64,000 nucleotides of DNA, taken from positions 212,648-276,647 of the forward strand of contig MFNL01000001.1 of NCBI GenBank assembly GCA_001782035.1. The letters run 5' to 3'. Below, one piece after another: positions 2,005 through 59,309 of this stretch; the first letter of the stretch is position 1, and each line of letters opens with the position of its first letter. Made by a program: the position numbers and the translations under genes. The stretch comes from Candidatus Levybacteria bacterium RIFCSPHIGHO2_01_FULL_37_17 (GTDB lineage: Bacteria; Patescibacteriota; Microgenomatia; Levybacterales; UBA12049). Below the pieces are notes generated by a model. It did no database searches. It was given only the letters and a program-made list of their open reading frames with translations, and was not told the DNA's origin.

Positions 2005-2300
2005 ATGCTCTAAATATAATTTTGCAGCCTATAATTTCGGAAAAATCATTAAACGATGTAGGGAAAAGCCGATTTACATTTAAAGTTGCGAAAGATGCGG
2101 ACAAAAATCAAATTAGAAAAGCAGTTGAGGATAAATTTAAGGTGAATGTTATAAATATCTCAACGATTAAGTTGCATGGTAAAGAAAAACAAATCCGAAC
2201 AAGAACAAGGGTTGCAAAAGTAGCAAATAAACCATTTAAAAAAGCAATAGTAACACTTAAAGAGGGACAAAAAATTGCAGTTTTTGAATCAGGGAAATAA
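2001..2300 (+). CDS. rplW: 50S ribosomal protein L23
   Basis: The product has L23-like sequence (..ISEKSL..FTFKV..) and sits between rplD and rplB. Confidence 0.85.
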   Translation: MNALNIILQPIISEKSLNDVGKSRFTFKVAKDADKNQIRKAVEDKFKVNVINISTIKLHGKEKQIRTRTRVAKVANKPFKKAIVTLKEGQKIAVFESGK

Positions 2301-2344
2301 ATTAATGATTAATATTCAACAGCTAATGGTTAAGATGAACAAAT

Positions 2345-3100
2345 ATGAATAAATTAAAAATTATAAAAAAGAAGCAATCCGGAAGAGACGCTGCAGGCAG
2401 AGTCGCGGTGAGACATCAAGGGGGAGAACAGAAAAGATTCGTGCGTTCTATTGATTTTAAAAGAGACAAAAAAAACATACTCGGGAAAATTATTTCTTTA
2501 GAATATGATCCGGGACGAACCGTAGATATAGCACTTGTTCAATATAGCGACGGCGAGAAAAGATATATATTATCACCGGAAGGATTAAAGTTAAATGATA
2601 GGGTAATAGCGGCAGACAGTGGAGCCGAAATAAAAACAGGCAATGCAATGCCACTTTCTGAAATGCCCATAGGGACGGTAGTTCATAATGTAGAACTTTA
2701 TCCTGGTAGGGGAGGTCAAATCGCAAGAGGAGCAGGGGCACAAGCCGTTATTGCTGCAAAAGAAGGCGGTTATATACACTTAAAGCTTCCCAGCGGAGAA
2801 GTACGAAAAATTCTGCAAAAATCTATGGCAACAATCGGAGCTTTGGGTAATGCTGATTTAAAAAACAGAGTATTTGGAAAAGCGGGAACAAAAAGGCTAA
2901 TGGGAATAAGGCCAACAGTTAGAGGAGTCGCACAAAATCCAAGGAGTCATCCTCACGGAGGAGGAGAAGGCAGATCAGGAATTGGCATGAGTCTTCCTAA
3001 GACATTTGCCGGAAGAGCAGCTGTTGGCAATACAAGAAGGCCTAAAAAATATTCAAATAAATATATTTTGCAAAAAAGAAAGAAAGGAAAACATAGCTAA
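2345..3100 (+). CDS. rplB: 50S ribosomal protein L2, N-terminally short
   Basis: L2 motifs are visible: [44 protein letters not shown], and the [10 protein letters not shown] His-containing loop. Confidence 0.9.
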
Positions 3101-3384
3101 TGGCAAGAAGTTCTAAAAAAGGTCCGTTTATAGACCCGAAATTAGTTAAAAAAGTTAATTTACAAAAACAAAACGGTGATAAGTCGGCGATAAAAACATG
3201 GAAAAGATCCTGCCAAATTCCGCCGGAATTTGTCGGACATACTTTTGCCGTACATAACGGAAGAAATTTTATAAATGTTTTTGTGGTTGAAGGAATGGTT
3301 GGACACAGGCTTGGTGAATTTGCACCAACTCGAACTTTTAGAACTCACGGAAGAGTTGTAGCAAGGGAGATATCAAAGACATAA
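3100..3384 (+). CDS. rpsS: 30S ribosomal protein S19
   Basis: The sequence [34 protein letters not shown] matches S19. Confidence 0.9.
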
Positions 3385-3385
3385 T

Positions 3386-3793
3386 ATGGAAATTATTGCA
3401 GTATCAAAATCAGTTAGAATTGCGCCTAGAAAAATAAGGCTTATCGCAGATTCGATAAGGAAACAGACATTGGAAGATGCGCTAGTTTCTCTTCCCCTTT
3501 TAAATAAAAGAGGAGCTTCGACGCTTAATAAAACCTTGAAAAGCGCAATAGCTAATGCAAAAAACAATCATAACATACATAAAGATGTGCTTTTTATAAA
3601 ATCAATTGAAATAAATGAGGCGCCTTTTTATAAAAGGTTTAGACCATCAACACGCGGACGGGTACACCCTTATAAAAGAAGAGGAACACATATCAAGATT
3701 GTTTTAGCGGATAATAAATCCGAAAAATCAAATTCGAAGCCAGAAATAAAAGAACAAATTCGAAATCCAAAAATTGAAAAGGAGACTAAATAA
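3386..3793 (+). CDS. rplV: 50S ribosomal protein L22 with a Lys-rich C-terminal tail
   Basis: The L22 fold sequence (ISPRK.R..A..IRG..) is present and the gene holds the expected operon position. Confidence 0.85.
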   Translation: MEIIAVSKSVRIAPRKIRLIADSIRKQTLEDALVSLPLLNKRGASTLNKTLKSAIANAKNNHNIHKDVLFIKSIEINEAPFYKRFRPSTRGRVHPYKRRGTHIKIVLADNKSEKSNSKPEIKEQIRNPKIEKETK

Positions 3794-3795
3794 CA

Positions 3796-4437
3796 ATGGG
3801 ACAAAAAATTAATCCAAAAATTTTAAGATTGGGTGTAGGTGTTAATTGGTCAAGCCGCTGGTTTGATGACGTTAAATATAAGGATACGCTTTTGGAGGAT
3901 TATCATATTCGCAAGGCATTAATGGATAGGTTAAAAAATGCCGGTATTGCTGAAATTGATATTGAAAGAAGTATAAACAGTATAAAAATAACTGCATACG
4001 TTTCTAAACCGGGTATGGTAATAGGGCGTGGCGGTACAGGTCTTGAGGAATTAAAAAAATTCTTGACCAACCTACTTAAAAAAAGTGGCAAGAGTCAATA
4101 CAAAATTGATACCTTGGTCGAGCCGATAAAAGACCCAAATTTAAATGCGTATCTTGTTGCAAGAAATATATCAGACCAGCTTATCAGAAGACTTCCTGCA
4201 AAAAGGGTTATTAAATCGGCTGCCGAGCGGGTTATGGGCAGTGGAGCAAAGGGAGTAAGAATAGTTTTATCCGGCAGAATCGGCGGAGCGGAAATCGGAA
4301 GAAGAGAAAAGCTACAGCAAGGGACCGTTCCTTTGTCAACCATTAGAGAAAACATAGATTATGCATCTGCCCCTTCCCTAACAAAAAAAGGATATATCGG
4401 TGTAAAAGTTTGGATACACAAAGGAGAGGAGCAATAA
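3796..4437 (+). CDS. rpsC: 30S ribosomal protein S3
   Basis: The product has a KH domain and the S3 C-terminal motifs (MGQKINP.., ..[12 protein letters not shown]..). Confidence 0.9.
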
Positions 4438-51852: not shown

Positions 51853-52857
51853 ATGGAAGACTTATTAGAGCGAGCAAAAAAAATTTTAGACAAAGCGGGT
51901 TTGGACGAAAAAAGGCTTATGTTATTTCAGTTGGAGGCTTTATCATCGGAGCCTGATTTTTGGAAAAATCCAAAGGATGCAACAGAAAAAATGAAACAGC
52001 TGGCAAGACTTGCGGAAGAAGTTTCAGAGCTGCAGGCGCTTTCTGATAAAATAAAAAATAAAAATCAAGAGGGATTAGGAGAGCTAGTTTCAAAATTAGA
52101 GAAAATATTATATTTTTCCAACCCCCACGATAAAGGCGGCGCGATACTTTCTCTTCATGCTGGGCAAGGCGGGGTAGAGGCAATGGATTGGACAGAAATG
52201 CTTCTTAGAATGTACAGTAGATTTTTTGAAAAACATGGATGGAAATTTGAGACAATCGACCAAACCCAGGGCGAGGAAGCAGGGATTAAAAGTATAACGA
52301 TTGTAATAGACGGAGAGTACGCTTATGGTTTATTAAAACATGAAGCAGGAGTTCATAGATTGGTCCGGCAATCTCCTTTTAATGCGGACAAATTACGGCA
52401 AACCTCCTTTGCGCTTATTGAAGTTTTACCCAATCTTGAAAATAATGAAAACGTAGATGTTAAAGAAGAAGATTTAGAATGGGATTTTTTTAGAAGCGGC
52501 GGACACGGTGGGCAAAACGTTAATAAAGTATCGACCGCAGTAAGACTTAATCATAAACCAACAGGAATAGTTGTTACTGCTCACGCCGAAAGATATCAGG
52601 GGAAAAACAGGGAGTTTGCTTTGAATATTCTTAAAGGAAAACTTTGGCAGCTTTATGAAGAAGAAAAAAAGAAAGAACAAGCAGCAGCCAAAGGAACATA
52701 TAAAACTCCGGGATGGGGAAACCAAATACGATCCTACGTTTTACATCCTTATAAATTGGTAAAAGATCTTCGCACTGGATATGAGACCTCAGAAACAGAG
52801 GCAGTGTTAAATGGTGAGATTGGAGGCTTTATAGACGAAGAGCTCCGTAAGTTATAA
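51853..52857 (+). CDS. prfB: peptide chain release factor 2 (continuous ORF, no programmed frameshift)
   Basis: The SPF tripeptide (..RQSPFNAD..) and the GGQ motif ([12 protein letters not shown]) are present. Confidence 0.85.
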
Positions 52858-52878: not shown

Positions 52879-53388
52879 TTGTGCTTAACTAGATATGGGA
52901 GAATACTCTTTATGGATGAAAATAATACATCTCAACCTACTGGAACAATCATTGAAAATAAGCCTTTAATTCACAAGTTTAGAGAGGTAGGAATGTTCAC
53001 TCCGAAAATTATTACCGTTTTAGTTTTAGTTGTAAGCCTAGGTGTTTTAAGCGGCTATTTACTTTCGACAAGGAATTTAAATTTTTCTTCCAATAATAGC
53101 GCGTCTTCTTCCTCGCAAAATGTTACGGCAAAAGGTACAGTGGTTGGATCTAATGATACTATCACATTTAAAGACACTGCTGAGGGAGTGCTTAAAGAAG
53201 GAGGAATAGACGGTGAGGGCGCTTTTCATCTGGAGAGAGCTGGTGGAGAAAGTCAAAATGTTTACTTAACATCCTCAATTGTTGATTTATCTAAATTTGT
53301 AGACAAAAAAATAAAAGTTTGGGGACAAACTCAGGCTGCGCAACATGCGGGGTGGTTGATGGATGTTGGAAAAGTTGAAGTTCTCTAA
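52879..53388 (+). CDS. hypothetical membrane-anchored/secreted protein
   Basis: A TM helix is followed by a Ser-rich linker and a small beta-rich domain. I recognise no family. Confidence 0.3.
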   Translation: MCLTRYGRILFMDENNTSQPTGTIIENKPLIHKFREVGMFTPKIITVLVLVVSLGVLSGYLLSTRNLNFSSNNSASSSSQNVTAKGTVVGSNDTITFKDTAEGVLKEGGIDGEGAFHLERAGGESQNVYLTSSIVDLSKFVDKKIKVWGQTQAAQHAGWLMDVGKVEVL

Positions 53389-54146
53389 TGATAAAGCTCG
53401 ATGGAGTATCTAAAAAATTTGCTACAGGTACATTTGGACTTTCCGAAATAAATCTTGCAATTGATAAAGGAGAGTTTGTATTTTTAGTAGGAGCAACCGG
53501 ATCTGGAAAAACAACGCTTTTTAGAATTCTAATTAGGGACTTAGTTCCATCAGAAGGAAAGGTTAGAGTAGGCGATTTAGACGTTTCAACTCTTCCAAAA
53601 TCTAAGCTTACAACACTTAGGAAAATGATAGGCGTGGTGTTCCAAGACCTTAAATTATTAAACGATAGAACAATATTTGAAAACGTTGTACTTCCACTGG
53701 ATGTTTCAGGAGAAACGGGACTTGGCGCAGCAGAAAAAGTTGAAAAGATTTTGAGAAAAGTTGGCATTTTTGAGCACAAAGATAAATTTCCAGTTCAATT
53801 GTCTGGAGGAGAACTTCAAAGGACCGCAATCGCAAGAGCCTTAGTTTTATCGCCTCAGATTATTCTTGCAGATGAACCAACTGGAAATTTAGATGCCGCG
53901 ACCTCATGGGAAATAGTAAAAATTCTTTCCGACATCAATAAGGAAGGGACAACAGTTATTATGGCAACCCATAATACTGATATTGTCAAAAGCATGGATA
54001 TGCGCACAATTCATATTGATAGAGGCAAAATTGTAAAAGATGAAAATATAAAACATGTAGTCATAAAAGAAAAAGAGAAAGATGAGAAAGGTGAAAATAA
54101 AGACGACAAGGAAGTTAAAGAAAAAGGGGAAGGAAAGAAAGAATGA
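53388..54146 (+). CDS. ftsE: cell division ATP-binding protein FtsE with a Lys/Glu-rich C-terminal tail
   Basis: Walker A GATGSGKTT, the ABC signature LSGGELQR and Walker B ILADEPTGNLD are present. Confidence 0.85.
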   Translation: MIKLDGVSKKFATGTFGLSEINLAIDKGEFVFLVGATGSGKTTLFRILIRDLVPSEGKVRVGDLDVSTLPKSKLTTLRKMIGVVFQDLKLLNDRTIFENVVLPLDVSGETGLGAAEKVEKILRKVGIFEHKDKFPVQLSGGELQRTAIARALVLSPQIILADEPTGNLDAATSWEIVKILSDINKEGTTVIMATHNTDIVKSMDMRTIHIDRGKIVKDENIKHVVIKEKEKDEKGENKDDKEVKEKGEGKKE

Positions 54147-55012
54147 AATTTTTTAGTACTGCTTGGAGAAATATAAGAAGGTCGCCCTATCAGGCGCTTT
54201 CTGCAGTACTTATAATGTCACTGACGTTTTTAGTTATTTCATTTTTTGTTTTTCTTTTAGTCGGATCGTCCAAGATAATAAACTTTTTTGAATCTAAGCC
54301 TCAGGTTACAGCATTTTTCAAAAATGACGCGACACAGCAGCAAATAAATGGTTTGCAAAATGAATTGTCTACAAGCGGAGAAATAGCATCTATAAAGTTT
54401 GTTTCAAAAGATGAGGCGCTAAAAATTTATAAAGAACAAAATAAAGACGACCCTTTACTTTTGGACTTGGTTACAGCAGATGTTTTGCCGGCTTCGTTTG
54501 AAATCTCCGCCGTAAAAATTGAAGATTTGGCAGGGATTTCCGAGACCCTCAAAAAAAGTCCAATTGTATCTGAAGTTATATATCAAAGAGACGTAGTGTC
54601 CGCATTAACTTCATGGACAAATGCAATAAGACAAATTGGGCTTGCACTAATCATACTGCTTTCCGCAGTATCTGTTTTTATTATGGTGACAATAATTGGT
54701 GTTAAAATATCGCGTAAAAAGCCAGATATTGAAATAATGAAATTAATAGGTGCAACAAGTTGGTATATAAGATGGCCTTTTATAATAGAAGGAGTTACCT
54801 ATGGAGCAATTGGGGCTATTATTGGTTGGACAATTTCAGTTGGTGTGCTTTTATACACAACTCCTTTTTTAGAGTCTTTTCTAAAAGGGATTCCGGTTCT
54901 TCCAGTTTCTCTTCTTTCATTGCTAGGGTTACTAGCATTTGAACTGCTTCTTGCTAGTCTCTTGGGGATACTCTCAAGTTATTTGGCAGTACTTCGCTAT
55001 CTTAAAACATAA
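54143..55012 (+). CDS. ftsX: cell division permease FtsX
   Basis: The product has four TM segments and a periplasmic domain, and overlaps the ftsE stop. Confidence 0.8.
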   Translation: MKFFSTAWRNIRRSPYQALSAVLIMSLTFLVISFFVFLLVGSSKIINFFESKPQVTAFFKNDATQQQINGLQNELSTSGEIASIKFVSKDEALKIYKEQNKDDPLLLDLVTADVLPASFEISAVKIEDLAGISETLKKSPIVSEVIYQRDVVSALTSWTNAIRQIGLALIILLSAVSVFIMVTIIGVKISRKKPDIEIMKLIGATSWYIRWPFIIEGVTYGAIGAIIGWTISVGVLLYTTPFLESFLKGIPVLPVSLLSLLGLLAFELLLASLLGILSSYLAVLRYLKT

Positions 55013-56203
55013 ATGTTTTTTAAAAAATTCTTTGCCATTTTCTTTGTTTTATTATCGGGCATTTTATTTTTTTTATTTAGCTTAACTTCAAATGCCCAAA
55101 CTTCTACATTGCCAGAGTGTAAGGAGAAAGGACTTACGCCTCAAGAGTGCATTGACTATTTCTCAAACAAGATAAGCGAATTAAGAAGTCAAGAGACCAC
55201 ATTGTCAAATCAGATCGCAATTATGAATAATCAGATAAAACTAACAGAATACCGTATTGAAGCAACAGAAGAAGAAATAACGAATTTAACGCTAGACATA
55301 GATACTGCGTCTAAAAAAATAGGCGGACTTGAAAAGTCCTTAAACGAACTCATAGTAGTCTTGATGAATAGAGTTGTAGCAACGTATGAAATTGGTACTA
55401 TTCAGCCTTTGCAAATTCTTCTTACCTCAACTGACGCATCTGACTTTCTCTCGAGACTGAATTATTTAAAAAGAGCACAAGCTCACGACAAAAGACTTAT
55501 TTATGAAACCCAACAAGCAAAAATAGACTATACAAATCAGAAAGAAATATATGAGGATAAAAAGAAAAAAGTTGAGCAATTAAAAACACAACTTGTTACG
55601 TATAGCTCGCAACTTGATAAAGAAAAGCAGGCTAAACAGATCTTATTAAATGAAACGAGAGGAAATGAGGCAAGCTATCAAAGGCTCTTGGCACAAGCAA
55701 GAGCTGAGTTTCTAGCTATTCAAGGAATTATTGCTGGTAAAGGAACAGAAGAGGAAGTTCGCGAGGTCAAGAAAGGAGACGTGGTTGCGTCTATAATTCC
55801 TTCAGCCTCTTGCAACTCTTCCGGTCCGCATCTTCATTTTACAGTTCTTGAAGGTAGTAACGCTGTTAATCCATTTAGCAAGTTAAAAGACGTAGCATAT
55901 ACAGATAGATCTGGGGGCGACTCTTGGTCTCCATCCGGAAGTTGGGATTGGCCTTTATCTCCTCCTATACAATTTAATCAAGGTTACGGAGTTACTACAT
56001 GCGTCAAGTCAGGATTCTGTGGCAATATTTACAATTCACATAACGGGCTTGATATCTCAAGCTCATCCTACACAGTTTACGCTGTCGCTGATGGGGTAAT
56101 GTATAGGGGGAGCTACTCTGTTGGGTGCGCTCTTCCTTATGTAAGAGTAAAACATAAAGATTCAAACATCGATACTCTTTATCTTCACACGTATTCAAAC
56201 TGA
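55013..56203 (+). CDS. FtsEX-associated coiled-coil M23/LytM-family peptidase (EnvC/PcsB-like) with an apparently permuted catalytic domain
   Basis: A signal peptide and long coiled coil are followed by M23 C-terminal-half motifs (..VKKGDVVASI..SGPHLHFTVLEGSNAVNPF). These are followed, not preceded, by M23 N-terminal-half motifs (..HNGLDIS...YTVYAVADGVMY..VRVKH.D...TLYLH). Confidence 0.6.
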   Translation: MFFKKFFAIFFVLLSGILFFLFSLTSNAQTSTLPECKEKGLTPQECIDYFSNKISELRSQETTLSNQIAIMNNQIKLTEYRIEATEEEITNLTLDIDTASKKIGGLEKSLNELIVVLMNRVVATYEIGTIQPLQILLTSTDASDFLSRLNYLKRAQAHDKRLIYETQQAKIDYTNQKEIYEDKKKKVEQLKTQLVTYSSQLDKEKQAKQILLNETRGNEASYQRLLAQARAEFLAIQGIIAGKGTEEEVREVKKGDVVASIIPSASCNSSGPHLHFTVLEGSNAVNPFSKLKDVAYTDRSGGDSWSPSGSWDWPLSPPIQFNQGYGVTTCVKSGFCGNIYNSHNGLDISSSSYTVYAVADGVMYRGSYSVGCALPYVRVKHKDSNIDTLYLHTYSN

Positions 56204-56253: not shown

Positions 56254-57075
56254 ATGAAAGCTCTATTTATAGGAGCAGTATTTACCTTTCTATTTTATTT
56301 TTTTACCGCTTCTTCTTTTGCTGCAACATTATCTATAGATAATCCACCTTCCACGATTGATGAATCACAGGAATTTGACAGCAGCGTTAATTTTATATGT
56401 TCTGGGTGTAGTGATTCATATATTAGGGGAGTTTTTTATCCAAGCGGAAGCAGTTATTTTGGATACACACAAGATAATAGCGGAAATTGGAGTAACGCGT
56501 CTGGAAGCAATTGCACATCATTTTATAAGATTTCTCAAGCTGAATTACAGAGTGGAAGTTGGAGTGGAACTTTGAAGTTTAAACCAGATCCTGAAAGTTC
56601 ATACTATAATGGACCAGGAGAATATTCTTTTAAAATAGGAAGATACACCTCAAGTTGTAGTTCATCTTCTGTTACTTGGTCTGACGAGAAAACGATTGCT
56701 ATATCGGGCCCAACGCCGACACCTACCAATTCACCGACCCCAACTTCTGAGCTAACTGTAACTAATACTCCCACTTCAACAAAGACTCCAACTCCAACCA
56801 AAACACCTACGCCTACTAAATCTCCAACCCCCACCAAGAAACCAAGTCCAACAAGCTCAAGTGAGCAAAATATTCTTGGTACATCTTCAGAAACGAGCAA
56901 TGCTCCTACAAAATCAGAGGTTAAAATAGCTTCGGCAAGCGGAGCGGATTTAGCGGGGGGCATTTTCATTGGGGCGGGAATTGTTTTTGCATTTCTTTGT
57001 GGTATAGTTATTTTCTGGCCAAAAATAAAAACTTATATTGACAAAAATGGACAAGATAGTAACTCAGACAGTTGA
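56254..57075 (+). CDS. cell-surface protein with a Pro/Thr-rich repeat linker and a C-terminal TM anchor
   Basis: A signal peptide, a Cys-containing globular domain, (PTPTK)n repeats and a C-terminal hydrophobic helix plus charged tail are present. Confidence 0.4.
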   Translation: MKALFIGAVFTFLFYFFTASSFAATLSIDNPPSTIDESQEFDSSVNFICSGCSDSYIRGVFYPSGSSYFGYTQDNSGNWSNASGSNCTSFYKISQAELQSGSWSGTLKFKPDPESSYYNGPGEYSFKIGRYTSSCSSSSVTWSDEKTIAISGPTPTPTNSPTPTSELTVTNTPTSTKTPTPTKTPTPTKSPTPTKKPSPTSSSEQNILGTSSETSNAPTKSEVKIASASGADLAGGIFIGAGIVFAFLCGIVIFWPKIKTYIDKNGQDSNSDS

Positions 57076-57472
57076 ACAAACAAAAGAACTTGGGAAGGAA
57101 TTAGCAAAAACATTAAAAAAAGGCGATATCATATGTCTGTATGGTAATCTTGGAAGCGGGAAAACCTCTTTTGCCCAGGGCTTAGCAGAGGGCTTAGGGA
57201 TTGAAAGAAGGATAATCTCTCCGACTTTTATAATTATTAGAAGCTACAAAACAAAAAACGTCAAATTTTACCATATAGATTTATATAGAACATCAACCAA
57301 AAATGATTTGATTTCACTAGGTATTGACCAACTTTTAAAAAGTAGCGATGCAATTTTAACAATTGAATGGGCTGAGAAACTTAATAAATTCTTGCCAAAA
57401 AAAAGAATTGATCTACACTTTAAACAGACAGATGATAATAGCCGGGAAATAACTAAAAATAAATATGACTAG
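57038..57472 (+). CDS. tsaE: tRNA threonylcarbamoyladenosine biosynthesis protein TsaE (YjeE)
   Basis: The P-loop reads ..ICLYGNLGSGKTSFAQG.. and ..SPTF.I...Y.. is present. Confidence 0.75.
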   Translation: MTKMDKIVTQTVEQTKELGKELAKTLKKGDIICLYGNLGSGKTSFAQGLAEGLGIERRIISPTFIIIRSYKTKNVKFYHIDLYRTSTKNDLISLGIDQLLKSSDAILTIEWAEKLNKFLPKKRIDLHFKQTDDNSREITKNKYD

Positions 57473-58364
57473 CCAGGTTGATAAAGCTGTTTCTGTTTTA
57501 AATAAGGGTGGAATAATAATTTTTCCAACCGACACTGCATTTGGAATAGGATGCAGGATTGACAAGGCAGAGTCAGTTGAAAGACTTTTTGAGATTAGAA
57601 AAAGGCCAAAAAATCAAGCGACCCCCGTACTTGTATCATCCATTGTAATGGCGAGAAATTACTTTTTAGAGATTCCTAAAGAGGTTGAACACAAGTTAGT
57701 GGAAAAATATTGGCCCGGTGCACTTACAATTGTTCTTCCTGCAAAAACTAAGAAAGTGCCCGAGCTTGTTCGAGGCATGCAGAAGAGTGTTGGAATCAGG
57801 GTACCGAATAATCCAACAATTCTTGAAATAATAAAAAAGACAGGAGTACCCATCCTTGGTCCCTCGGCAAACATGCACGGGGAAAATACTCCATTTAAGC
57901 TAGAAGATTTAGATAAAGAGTTAGTAAGTAAGGTGGATTTTGTTGTTAAAGGTGAAGTGGCACTCAAAAATATTTCAACAGTGATAGATTGTTCGGTAAA
58001 GCCTTGGAAAATATTGAGGCAAGGCGCGATAAAAATTTCTGACACTGTAAAAAATATTCTTTTTATTGATACTTCTGATAACCAAAAAATCGAATTAGGA
58101 TTAGTAATTGAAGCTAAAAAATATAAAGAGATTGTTTCACTGACAGCTTTAAAAAGAGAGATAGTATTAAATCTAATTGATAAGATTATTGCAAAGCACA
58201 ACTTAAATTTAAAAGAAATAACAGAAATAAAGGTAAATAATGGCCCTGGTTCTTTTACGGGTCTTAGGGCGGGAATTTCTATTGCAAATGCTTTAGCAAG
58301 TATTTTAAATATACCTATAAATGGTAAAAAGATTGGAGATTTGGAAAATGCCGTATATAATTAA
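57465..58364 (+). CDS. fusion protein: TsaC/Sua5/YrdC domain (N-terminal) + TsaB/YeaZ-like domain (C-terminal)
   Basis: The N-terminus has ..VLNKGGIIIFPTDTAFGIGC.., ..YWPGALTIVL.. and ..GIRVPN.. (YrdC). The C-terminus has ..LFIDTSDNQKIELGLV.. and ..GPGSFTGLRAGISIANALA.. (TsaB). Confidence 0.65.
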   Translation: MTSQVDKAVSVLNKGGIIIFPTDTAFGIGCRIDKAESVERLFEIRKRPKNQATPVLVSSIVMARNYFLEIPKEVEHKLVEKYWPGALTIVLPAKTKKVPELVRGMQKSVGIRVPNNPTILEIIKKTGVPILGPSANMHGENTPFKLEDLDKELVSKVDFVVKGEVALKNISTVIDCSVKPWKILRQGAIKISDTVKNILFIDTSDNQKIELGLVIEAKKYKEIVSLTALKREIVLNLIDKIIAKHNLNLKEITEIKVNNGPGSFTGLRAGISIANALASILNIPINGKKIGDLENAVYN

Positions 58365-58367
58365 ATT

Positions 58368-59309
58368 ATGCTTAAATTGTTGCGTCATATATTAACACCA
58401 CAAGCAACTAATAATTACAGAGCAAGAATTCTGCATCCTCAGTTTCTAATCTTAGCTATCCTCTTGTTTTTTGCATCCGGGATTCTTATGTCCTTTGTTA
58501 GAACAAATTTCCCTTCCGTTTTGGGCATAACATCGAATGTTTCAACCAACGAGTTACTAGTTCTTACAAATCAAAAGCGCCTAGAGGTAGGTTTGTCCCC
58601 CTTAACGATGAACTCCCAGCTTGAGGTGGCAGCACAGAATAAAGCAAATGATATGCTTGCAAAAAACTACTGGTCACACATTGCTCCTGATGGCACTACC
58701 CCTTGGTACTTTATAAAAAATTCTGGATATAGCTATATTTATGCAGGAGAAAACCTGGCACGAGGTTACAATAGTGCAAACGATGTTTTAAATGCATGGC
58801 TTGCAAGCCCGACACATAGAGATAACATCTTATCCAATAAATATCAAAACATTGGCTTTGCTGTTGTAACAGGAAATTTAACCGGTGAAGAAACGGTGCT
58901 GGTAGTGGAAATGTTTGGGAGTACAGGAGCGCCTGCTATAAATAAAGTTGCGTTGCAAACAGCTCAAAACATAAGTCCAACACCCGTAGTTGTAGCTCAA
59001 GAAGCAATTTCTCAACCCAGCCCAACCTTAACCTATACTCCAACCCCAACCCCGTTGCCTTTGGTAACAACTACAGGTAGTCAACTTTCAGCTAATTCAC
59101 AGATAAAGCCTCTTATTAATTCACAAACCTTCTCATCTAATATAGCAACATTAACAGTCGCCTTGTTCATGTTCGTTTTGATCTTGGATGTAGTAATTAT
59201 AGAAAGAAAAAAGATTTTAAGATTTGTGGGACACAATCTCGACCATTTTATATTCTTCGGCATGATTTTAGCAGTTATTTTATTTTTACTTAAAGGAAGT
59301 ATAATTTGA
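58368..59309 (+). CDS. CAP (SCP/PR-1-like, YkwD-type) domain protein with N- and C-terminal TM segments
   Basis: The CAP motifs ..LTNQKRLEVGLSPLTMNSQL..A.., ..YWSHI.. and ..GENLA.GY.. are present, along with a PT-rich linker. Confidence 0.6.
   Translation: MLKLLRHILTPQATNNYRARILHPQFLILAILLFFASGILMSFVRTNFPSVLGITSNVSTNELLVLTNQKRLEVGLSPLTMNSQLEVAAQNKANDMLAKNYWSHIAPDGTTPWYFIKNSGYSYIYAGENLARGYNSANDVLNAWLASPTHRDNILSNKYQNIGFAVVTGNLTGEETVLVVEMFGSTGAPAINKVALQTAQNISPTPVVVAQEAISQPSPTLTYTPTPTPLPLVTTTGSQLSANSQIKPLINSQTFSSNIATLTVALFMFVLILDVVIIERKKILRFVGHNLDHFIFFGMILAVILFLLKGSII

Follow-up and report, generated by a model that had tools for sequence, protein, structure and literature searches.

Within a window of 64,000 nucleotides (the whole stretch of DNA analysed, positions 212,648 to 276,647 of contig MFNL01000001.1 from Candidatus Levybacteria bacterium RIFCSPHIGHO2_01_FULL_37_17; G+C 36.4%), we characterized a gene that directly follows ftsE-ftsX and encodes a coiled-coil protein with an M23/LytM peptidase domain in circularly permuted motif order. 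The gene is the last in a tightly packed run of five on the + strand, namely prfB, a small membrane protein gene, ftsE, ftsX and the peptidase open reading frame (ORF):

51853-52857, + strand: prfB.
52879-53388, + strand: small single-pass membrane protein between prfB and ftsE, with relatives found there by tblastn in most related loci.
53388-54146, + strand: ftsE, an ATP-binding cassette (ABC) ATPase of 252 amino acids (Pfam ABC_tran, E=3.4e-32), overlapping ftsX by 4 bases, synteny conserved.
54143-55012, + strand: ftsX, 289 amino acids (Pfam FtsX_ECD, E=1.1e-19; FtsX, E=4.6e-12).
55013-56203, + strand: gene for the coiled-coil protein with the permuted M23/LytM domain, 396 amino acids plus stop (Pfam M23, 41 bits; 974 homologues).

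A previous sequence-only reading of this DNA had placed a coiled-coil peptidase directly after ftsE-ftsX, and this is borne out: the ORF starts at 55013, the very next base after the ftsX stop at 55012, and Pfam confirms both ftsE and ftsX. The next ORF begins 50 bases 3′ of the peptidase gene. The same reading saw no M23 continuation downstream in other frames; in agreement, a scan of the six-frame ORFs of the whole window with a hidden Markov model (HMM) of the family returned the peptidase gene as the sole match, with no leftover M23 pieces.

The protein divides into the following parts, with secondary structure taken from AlphaFold2 (AF2) monomer models built from 119 sequences:

55013-55096, + strand: probable Sec signal peptide, residues 1-28, with KK, a hydrophobic core and SNA/Q (MFFKKFF…LTSNA/Q).
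55139-55732, + strand: coiled-coil region predicted by AF2, residues 43-240, approximately 200 amino acids.
55745-55876, + strand: relocated segment corresponding to the end of a canonical M23 domain, residues 245-288 (VREVKKGD…SCNSSGPHLHF…NPF).
55877-55942, + strand: conserved linker, residues 289-310 (…GGDSWSPSGS), bridging the former C- and N-termini.
55943-56200, + strand: start of a canonical M23 domain, residues 311-396 (WDWPL…FNQGYG…HNGLD…YLH).

AF2 placed a helix at residues 3-23 of the putative signal peptide, followed by a low-confidence stretch (residues 26-32). The coiled-coil helices span residues 64-128 and 142-215, and a last helix (residues 219-240) runs into the catalytic domain; the order of the helices would put the hairpin tip near residues 129-141. 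The Pfam CC_PcsB model aligned to residues 106-170 with 23.3 bits, under its 27-bit cut-off. The relocated segment carries C267 and the HxH pair H273 and H275, and residues 311-396 carry the HxxxD pair H343 and D347, C372 and H392, with the protein ending 4 residues past H392. The sequence-only reading had located the first motif block at about residues 258-295 and the second at about residues 305-396, numbering that we correct: EVKKGD…NPF occupies residues 251-288, FNQGYG starts at residue 321, HNGLD covers residues 343-347 and YLH residues 390-392. Between the two blocks, it had described a roughly 35-residue Gly/Ser/Trp linker; instead, the linker comprises approximately 20-25 residues (289-310) and is conserved, confidently modelled and not low-complexity. 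Its hallmark is GGDxxxPSGSWxWP, in which D303, P307, S308, G309, W313 and P314 are invariant or nearly so, and its predicted local distance difference test (pLDDT) values in the full-length model are 95-98. In many relatives, an extra loop is inserted in the linker (CSGSSCGSSDGD / NCSGSSCGSSDGD).

The claim that motifs normally ending an M23 domain come before those normally beginning it was upheld by three sets of alignments. Pfam M23 (PF01551) matched the protein with E=2.3e-10 and 41.0 bits (gathering score 28.7) in two stretches, the stronger of which placed residues 250-287 on profile positions 61-96 of 96, at the end of the profile; residues 311-396 alone matched profile positions 2-52 of 96, at its beginning. 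The sequence-only reading had proposed looking for a split or reordered PF01551 alignment; the alignment was both, and became colinear once the two parts were rejoined, as described below. A phmmer search of the PDB gave the same reversal against a solved M23 chain, 9gy1_A, with residues 333-395 of the query aligned to chain residues 32-93 and residues 267-293 to chain residues 115-142. An equal reversal was obtained with a profile of 33 family members against two independent solved chains, 9gy1_A and the phage Gp16 chain 9m7n_A. Individual motifs are recognized in these alignments: H343-N-G-L-D347 aligns to HNGID of 9gy1_A, H273-L-H275 to PHLHF and H392 in YLH to YGH. The canonical colinear order is HxxxD, YxH and HxH, and the order found here is HxH, HxxxD and YxH. 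The permuted order of motifs in the ORF at 55013-56203 is thus real.

We next restored the canonical order in silico by cutting the sequence at residue 295/296 and joining residues 296-396 to residues 240-295. In native order, the query scored 44.6 bits in two Pfam stretches; the rejoined sequence scored 50.1 bits in one colinear stretch covering profile positions 2-96 of 96. Against 9gy1_A, the two stretches of the full-length query (27.8 bits) merged into a single one over chain residues 32-142 (38.3 bits, E=1.1e-8), and the rejoined query aligned colinearly over the whole domain with LytM, Csd3, NMB0315, TagE and SpoIIQ. The outcome was the same for five further members (5/5, or 6/6 with the query), which included divergent ones and a protein of 1256 amino acids; their scores rose on rejoining from 36.8 to 38.5, 63.9 to 71.0, 48.3 to 58.8, 66.4 to 72.5 and 57.8 to 60.7 bits. 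Since the alignments to the HMM and to PDB chains are broken up and in reverse order until the halves are rejoined, after which they are colinear, the domain is a permuted variant of M23 and no standard member of the family.

To place the protein among its homologues, we collected 974 proteins at E<=1e-3, with almost every one of the top 120 full length; the best come from Candidatus Levybacteria and other Microgenomates, with 45-79% identity. HxH precedes HxGxD in every one of the 119 aligned homologues (119/119), so that the orthologue comparison suggested by the sequence-only reading returned a uniform answer. H273, H275, H343, D347 and H392 are invariant across the 119 sequences, as are G255, W313, P314, Q323, G326 and others, and the catalytic residues are also kept in divergent subfamilies. 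These sequences bear directly on the idea that the order is an assembly or annotation artefact, arising from a local rearrangement, a frameshift or a chimeric contig. Nothing beyond the unusual order itself speaks for it; the homologues derive from independent assemblies (NCBI, JGI, ENA and Logan) that include the complete chromosomes CP066688, CP055307 and OY970292, the reading frame is unbroken and the remainder of the window is free of M23 fragments. As the identical order recurs in all 119 homologues, closed chromosomes among them, we rejected an artefact, the chance of which we regard as negligible.

The arrangement of genes is conserved together with the arrangement of motifs. A scan in which each species was represented by one genome detected relatives in 123 genomes, those with names belonging to Roizman-, Levy-, Davies-, Beckwith- and Woesebacteria and 'Microgenomatus', again with closed chromosomes included. 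The gene immediately upstream, on the same strand, is ftsX in 77 of 86 loci, and the order prfB, small transmembrane protein, ftsE, ftsX, peptidase gene holds in these 77; 6 loci are without upstream sequence and 3 are paralogues elsewhere. A profile search delivered 55 clusters (50% identity) at E<=1e-30, followed by more divergent matches of 375-420 amino acids that are colinear with the permuted profile and all end in …Y(L/W)H(V/L/I)Q. One of these divergent matches, P0186, keeps the synteny of prfB, small protein, ftsE and ftsX.

In a profile search of a library of 1.8 billion proteins, the best matches with canonical order were Clostridia proteins of approximately 390-430 amino acids. These include Miniphocaeibacter massiliensis WP_100065645.1 (P0231), named 'EnvC family / peptidoglycan DD-metalloendopeptidase family protein', as well as P0246 and P0267 (Acetitomaculum ruminis). 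P0231 and P0246, the two whose loci we examined, are encoded directly after ftsE-ftsX and combine CC_PcsB with M23. Like the query, the Clostridia proteins have a signal peptide, a coiled coil and an M23 domain in which HxxxD and HxH are intact (in all five of the canonical relatives compared); unlike in the query, this domain is colinear, and their last 40-50 residues correspond to residues 250-292 of the query. BLASTP returned the same relationship as two high-scoring segment pairs. The main one extends from the N-terminus of the query across the coiled coil as far as H392 (with P0231, for example, query 1-392 pairs with residues 1-379, E=3e-29), and the second places query residues 250-292 on the last approximately 40 residues of the subject, past the point where the C-terminus of the query maps. 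From this two-segment pattern it follows that the protein shares homology over its entire length with an established type of FtsEX partner, and that the sole rearrangement is the transfer of roughly the last 40-50 residues of the domain to its front.

The AF2 models are consistent with a single domain formed from both segments. The full-length model reached a pLDDT of 89.2 and a predicted template modelling score (pTM) of 0.70, with the beta-rich domain, linker included, mostly at pLDDT 94-98. Modelled separately, residues 236-396 formed one compact unit (pLDDT 90.4, pTM 0.88). The sequence-only reading had proposed such modelling to see whether the two halves assemble into the LytM beta-sheet with the motifs at a zinc site, and the compact unit is compatible with this. 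A search of the PDB with the whole model by Foldseek returned as best matches 8tzl_E (Vibrio cholerae EnvC in the FtsEX complex, E=3.4e-4), 8idc_E (Mycobacterium tuberculosis RipC), 6tpi_A (Escherichia coli EnvC) and 4cgk (PcsB). Order-dependent structure aligners recovered M23 over 71-85 residues only, or not at all, and Foldseek found no M23 match in the PDB for the domain-only model (best E=0.41), which may be read as a sign of the changed topology and is otherwise uninformative. Closure of the zinc site is suggested by the confident single-domain model together with the invariant ligands.

The same models speak to whether the domain might be completed between chains, as a domain-swapped dimer in which segment 245-288 of one chain packs on residues 311-396 of another. 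The native order is the arrangement that such a swap would need, and PcsB is known to form an auto-inhibited dimer (PMC11627006). However, the domain of the monomer model is compact and confident (pTM 0.88), and the conserved, confidently modelled 22-residue linker fits intramolecular closure; we consider a swap quite unlikely. Taken together, the HMM split, the in silico rejoining, the 119/119 order and the compact AF2 domain support a genuine circular permutation of the M23/LytM domain, as the sequence-only reading had suggested, and the permutation is well supported at the sequence level.

Proteins with two M23 domains in tandem illustrate how such an order could arise. In P0207, P0221, P0236, P0249, P0250 and others, the spacing from HxH to HxxxD across the junction of the two domains is approximately 60-70 residues, compared with 70 in the query, and the junction matches the permuted profile colinearly. 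The tandem proteins keep their outer halves, so that both domains are complete, and, unlike the query, are without the coiled coil and the GSWxWP linker. For this reason, we rejected them as direct ancestors and regard them as analogues that illustrate a route, not as demonstrated intermediates. A plausible origin is nevertheless that M23 was duplicated in tandem in an ancestral partner of FtsEX and that the outer halves were subsequently lost. The existence of tandem proteins that match the profile across their junction, and the weak M23 matches given by structure aligners, would also fit a less constructive history, in which the protein is a remnant of two decayed tandem domains (a C-half followed by an N-half) that has no working active site and serves as a scaffold only. 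Against such decay, the 119 sequences and the divergent subfamilies alike strictly conserve the linker and the catalytic residues of both halves, a single compact domain is predicted by AF2, and the rejoined sequence scores as a complete M23, making a decayed remnant very improbable.

Two cysteines, one in each segment, accompany the permutation: C267 sits immediately ahead of HLHF in the relocated segment, and C372 belongs to the other segment. Of the permuted-family sequences, 203 have both, 4 have neither, 2 (one of them truncated) have the first alone and 0 the second alone. Among canonical domains in our set, 0 of 69 have both, and the Clostridia proteins, unlike the query, are without the pair. 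This co-occurrence hints at a disulfide, specific to the family, that would tie the relocated segment to the body of the domain, and is suggestive only, because the cases in which both cysteines were lost are few and related to each other. Further local pairs are C330…C336 (W…W in some relatives) and C36…C46 near the N-terminus; the cysteine pairs and the loop inserted in the linker would fit a disulfide-rich exported protein. As an anecdotal observation, a DsbB gene directly follows one of the paralogues (L055).

Movement driven by ATP is passed on by FtsEX, via its extracellular domains, to the coiled-coil hairpin of a partner protein (PMC11627006). This partner is either a regulator, as in EnvC, in which a 'restraining arm' helix occupies the groove of a degenerate LytM domain, or an auto-inhibited hydrolase, as in PcsB (CHAP) or in CwlO and RipC (NlpC/P60) (PMC11627006). 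EnvC of E. coli has lost its zinc ligands and activates the amidases AmiA and AmiB (PMC11627006). With EnvC (E. coli 6TPI/4BH5; V. cholerae 8TZL), the query shares adjacency to ftsEX and an exported architecture in which an antiparallel coiled-coil hairpin, predicted in the query, precedes a LytM domain; in EnvC, this domain is colinear and degenerate, whereas that of the query is permuted and its catalytic residues are invariant. PcsB (Streptococcus pneumoniae), CwlO (Bacillus subtilis) and RipC (M. tuberculosis) all match the coiled coil of the query structurally and are coiled-coil partners that are themselves hydrolases, auto-inhibited until FtsEX acts, as we propose for the query; their catalytic domains are cysteine peptidases of the CHAP or NlpC/P60 type, in contrast to M23. 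In searches with Pfam and NCBIfam, no CHAP or NlpC/P60 domain was detected in the query, M23 being the only catalytic domain found, and the NCBIfam PcsB model scored 17 bits against a cut-off of 450. The stand-alone M23 endopeptidases LytM, lysostaphin and StM23 (9GY1) have HxxxD, HxH and YxH in common with the query and, unlike it, are in canonical order, without a coiled coil and without a link to FtsEX.

The reading that we favour, with a probability of roughly 0.7, is that the protein is an extracytoplasmic FtsEX partner of Microgenomates made up of a signal peptide, an EnvC/PcsB/RipC-type coiled-coil hairpin and a circularly permuted M23 zinc endopeptidase domain. Judged from its conserved residues and gene context, its most probable role is that of a catalytically active peptidoglycan endopeptidase gated by FtsEX, with H343, D347 and H275 as predicted zinc ligands and H273 and H392 as predicted catalytic residues. 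The hairpin tip would bind the extracellular domains of FtsX; ATP binding and hydrolysis by FtsE would shift the conformation of the coiled coil and relieve auto-inhibition of the catalytic domain; and the M23 domain would then cut peptide cross-links of peptidoglycan at the division site. This logic would follow that of PcsB, CwlO and RipC, unlike that of E. coli EnvC, which only activates amidases.

The sequence-only reading had also entertained a catalytically altered or purely regulatory EnvC-like partner. Accordingly worded, the protein would be a catalytically silent regulator whose permuted LytM domain offers only a groove in which a separate amidase docks and is activated. The architecture and the adjacency to FtsEX are indeed those of EnvC, the NCBIfam EnvC equivalog (NF008644) aligns to the coiled coil, and in one source a family member carries the name 'septal ring factor EnvC (AmiA/AmiB activator)'. 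However, only the coiled coil aligns to this model, which scores 26.1 bits against a cut-off of 270, and no amidase gene was seen within the operon. Above all, none of the five zinc and catalytic residues varies among the 119 sequences, whereas EnvC is without its zinc ligands (PMC11627006). Because of this invariance we do not favour an inactive regulator, which appears unlikely; a dual role as hydrolase and amidase activator may apply.

Several points weigh against an FtsEX-gated permuted endopeptidase. FtsX binding, auto-inhibition and enzyme activity are drawn from homology and synteny, and the geometry of the zinc site and the proximity of C267 to C372 from model confidence and conservation. 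The sequences that lost both cysteines are few and mutually related, and the tandem M23 proteins are without the GSWxWP linker of the family. Finally, some genomes contain paralogues that do not adjoin ftsEX (L033 4308-5513, L036 and L055 4032-5483). Among the paralogues away from ftsEX (L033, L055, L036 and L080), one adjoins a response regulator and histidine kinase pair, and L080 is a second permuted copy from the assembly that also contains L068.

The permutation alters how the coiled coil is attached to the catalytic domain. In P0246, a long Gly/Ser-rich tether separates the coil from the domain; in the query, the junction (AIQGIxAGxGxE) is short and conserved, reaches pLDDT 89-94 in the full-length model and passes directly into the strands that bear HxH. 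As this junction is short, conserved and ordered, coupling between coil and domain is probably more rigid and tighter than in tethered relatives of the P0246 type. A bolder and, in our estimate, doubtful extension is a new mode of FtsEX control, in which FtsE-driven movement of the coil would assemble or distort the metal site itself, through a short rigid junction between the last helix of the coil and the strands with the zinc ligand and catalytic His of HxH, such that direct mechanical gating replaces the steric restraining arm and tethered release of EnvC, PcsB and RipC, with a putative C267-C372 disulfide setting the resting geometry.

The permuted domain also occurs at the end of larger proteins, namely P0205 (1256 amino acids, L091 5001-8771) and P0214/P0272 (2492 amino acids, with an Exo_endo_phos domain), and the module has therefore spread beyond FtsEX partners. 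We discarded P0196 (4970 amino acids), with 16 weak matches to the linker region, as a false positive; it is a T/A/G-rich repeat protein with many sub-threshold matches. In public databases, members of the family are named 'hypothetical', 'CwlO-like' or 'EnvC'. Many records of species-representative metagenome-assembled genomes with the Microgenomates-type operon (loci L011-L085) are titled 'uncultured Gammaproteobacteria', 'Pseudomonadales', 'Brocadiaceae', 'Spirochaetia' or 'Limnocylindrales', and are probably mislabelled submissions.

As for the neighbouring genes, the small membrane protein at 52879-53388 matched no Pfam family. SweCD and SteAB are FtsEX accessory factors in other bacteria, and one may speculate that this protein has a comparable role here. 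In three Levybacteria relatives (L001-L003, approximately 2200-3900), a gene for an RVT_1 reverse transcriptase and a bAvd gene, which are absent from the window, are inserted between prfB and the small gene; the insertion looks like a diversity-generating retroelement. Downstream of the peptidase gene, the following features lie on the same strand:

56254-57075, + strand: directly 3′ of the peptidase gene, a secreted, Pro/Thr-rich protein (PTPT…) with a C-terminal membrane anchor and no Pfam family matched; relatives occupy the equivalent position in a subset of related loci.
57038-57472, + strand: tsaE, overlapping the end of the preceding ORF.
57465-58364, + strand: Sua5/TsaC fused to a TsaD/TsaB-like N-terminal piece, forming with tsaE a compact gene pair for N6-threonylcarbamoyladenosine (t6A) synthesis.
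58368-59309, + strand: CAP/SCP-domain protein with transmembrane segments at the C-terminus and a spacer rich in Pro and Thr, its downstream position kept in Levy- and Roizmanbacteria loci.

M23/LytM peptidases, such as lysostaphin, LytM, EnvC and NlpD, are among the best-studied cell-wall enzymes and regulators. Searching 8 million full texts brought up no account of a permuted M23, LytM or lysostaphin domain, and the papers on FtsEX and on bacteria of the candidate phyla radiation (CPR) retrieved do not mention the peptidase. As far as the literature searched shows, this is the first natural circular permutant of M23 to be reported. The sole precedent for permutation among wall peptidases in that literature is provided by NlpC/P60 families (YaeF/poxvirus G6R and LRAT-like; Anantharaman and Aravind 2003, as cited in PMC6403190). 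These are likewise natural permutants that swap the order of catalytic residues in a cell-wall peptidase superfamily, with a fold and chemistry (Cys/His, papain-like) unrelated to those of the M23 query.

For annotation, the family marks a blind spot: its Pfam matches are 'faint' and partial and Foldseek gives none to M23; order-dependent tools under-call permuted domains. For enzyme engineering, it offers a ready design for permuted enzymes of the lysostaphin type. To specialists, we expect the finding to be a moderate surprise that overturns no paradigm and provides a testable handle on the coupling of FtsEX to its effectors. To our knowledge, division and wall remodelling in the uncultured, ultrasmall CPR bacteria are essentially unstudied. 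Kept in the FtsEX operon throughout the sampled lineages of Microgenomates, the permutation constitutes a natural experiment on how the point at which the coil attaches to the domain may affect regulation.

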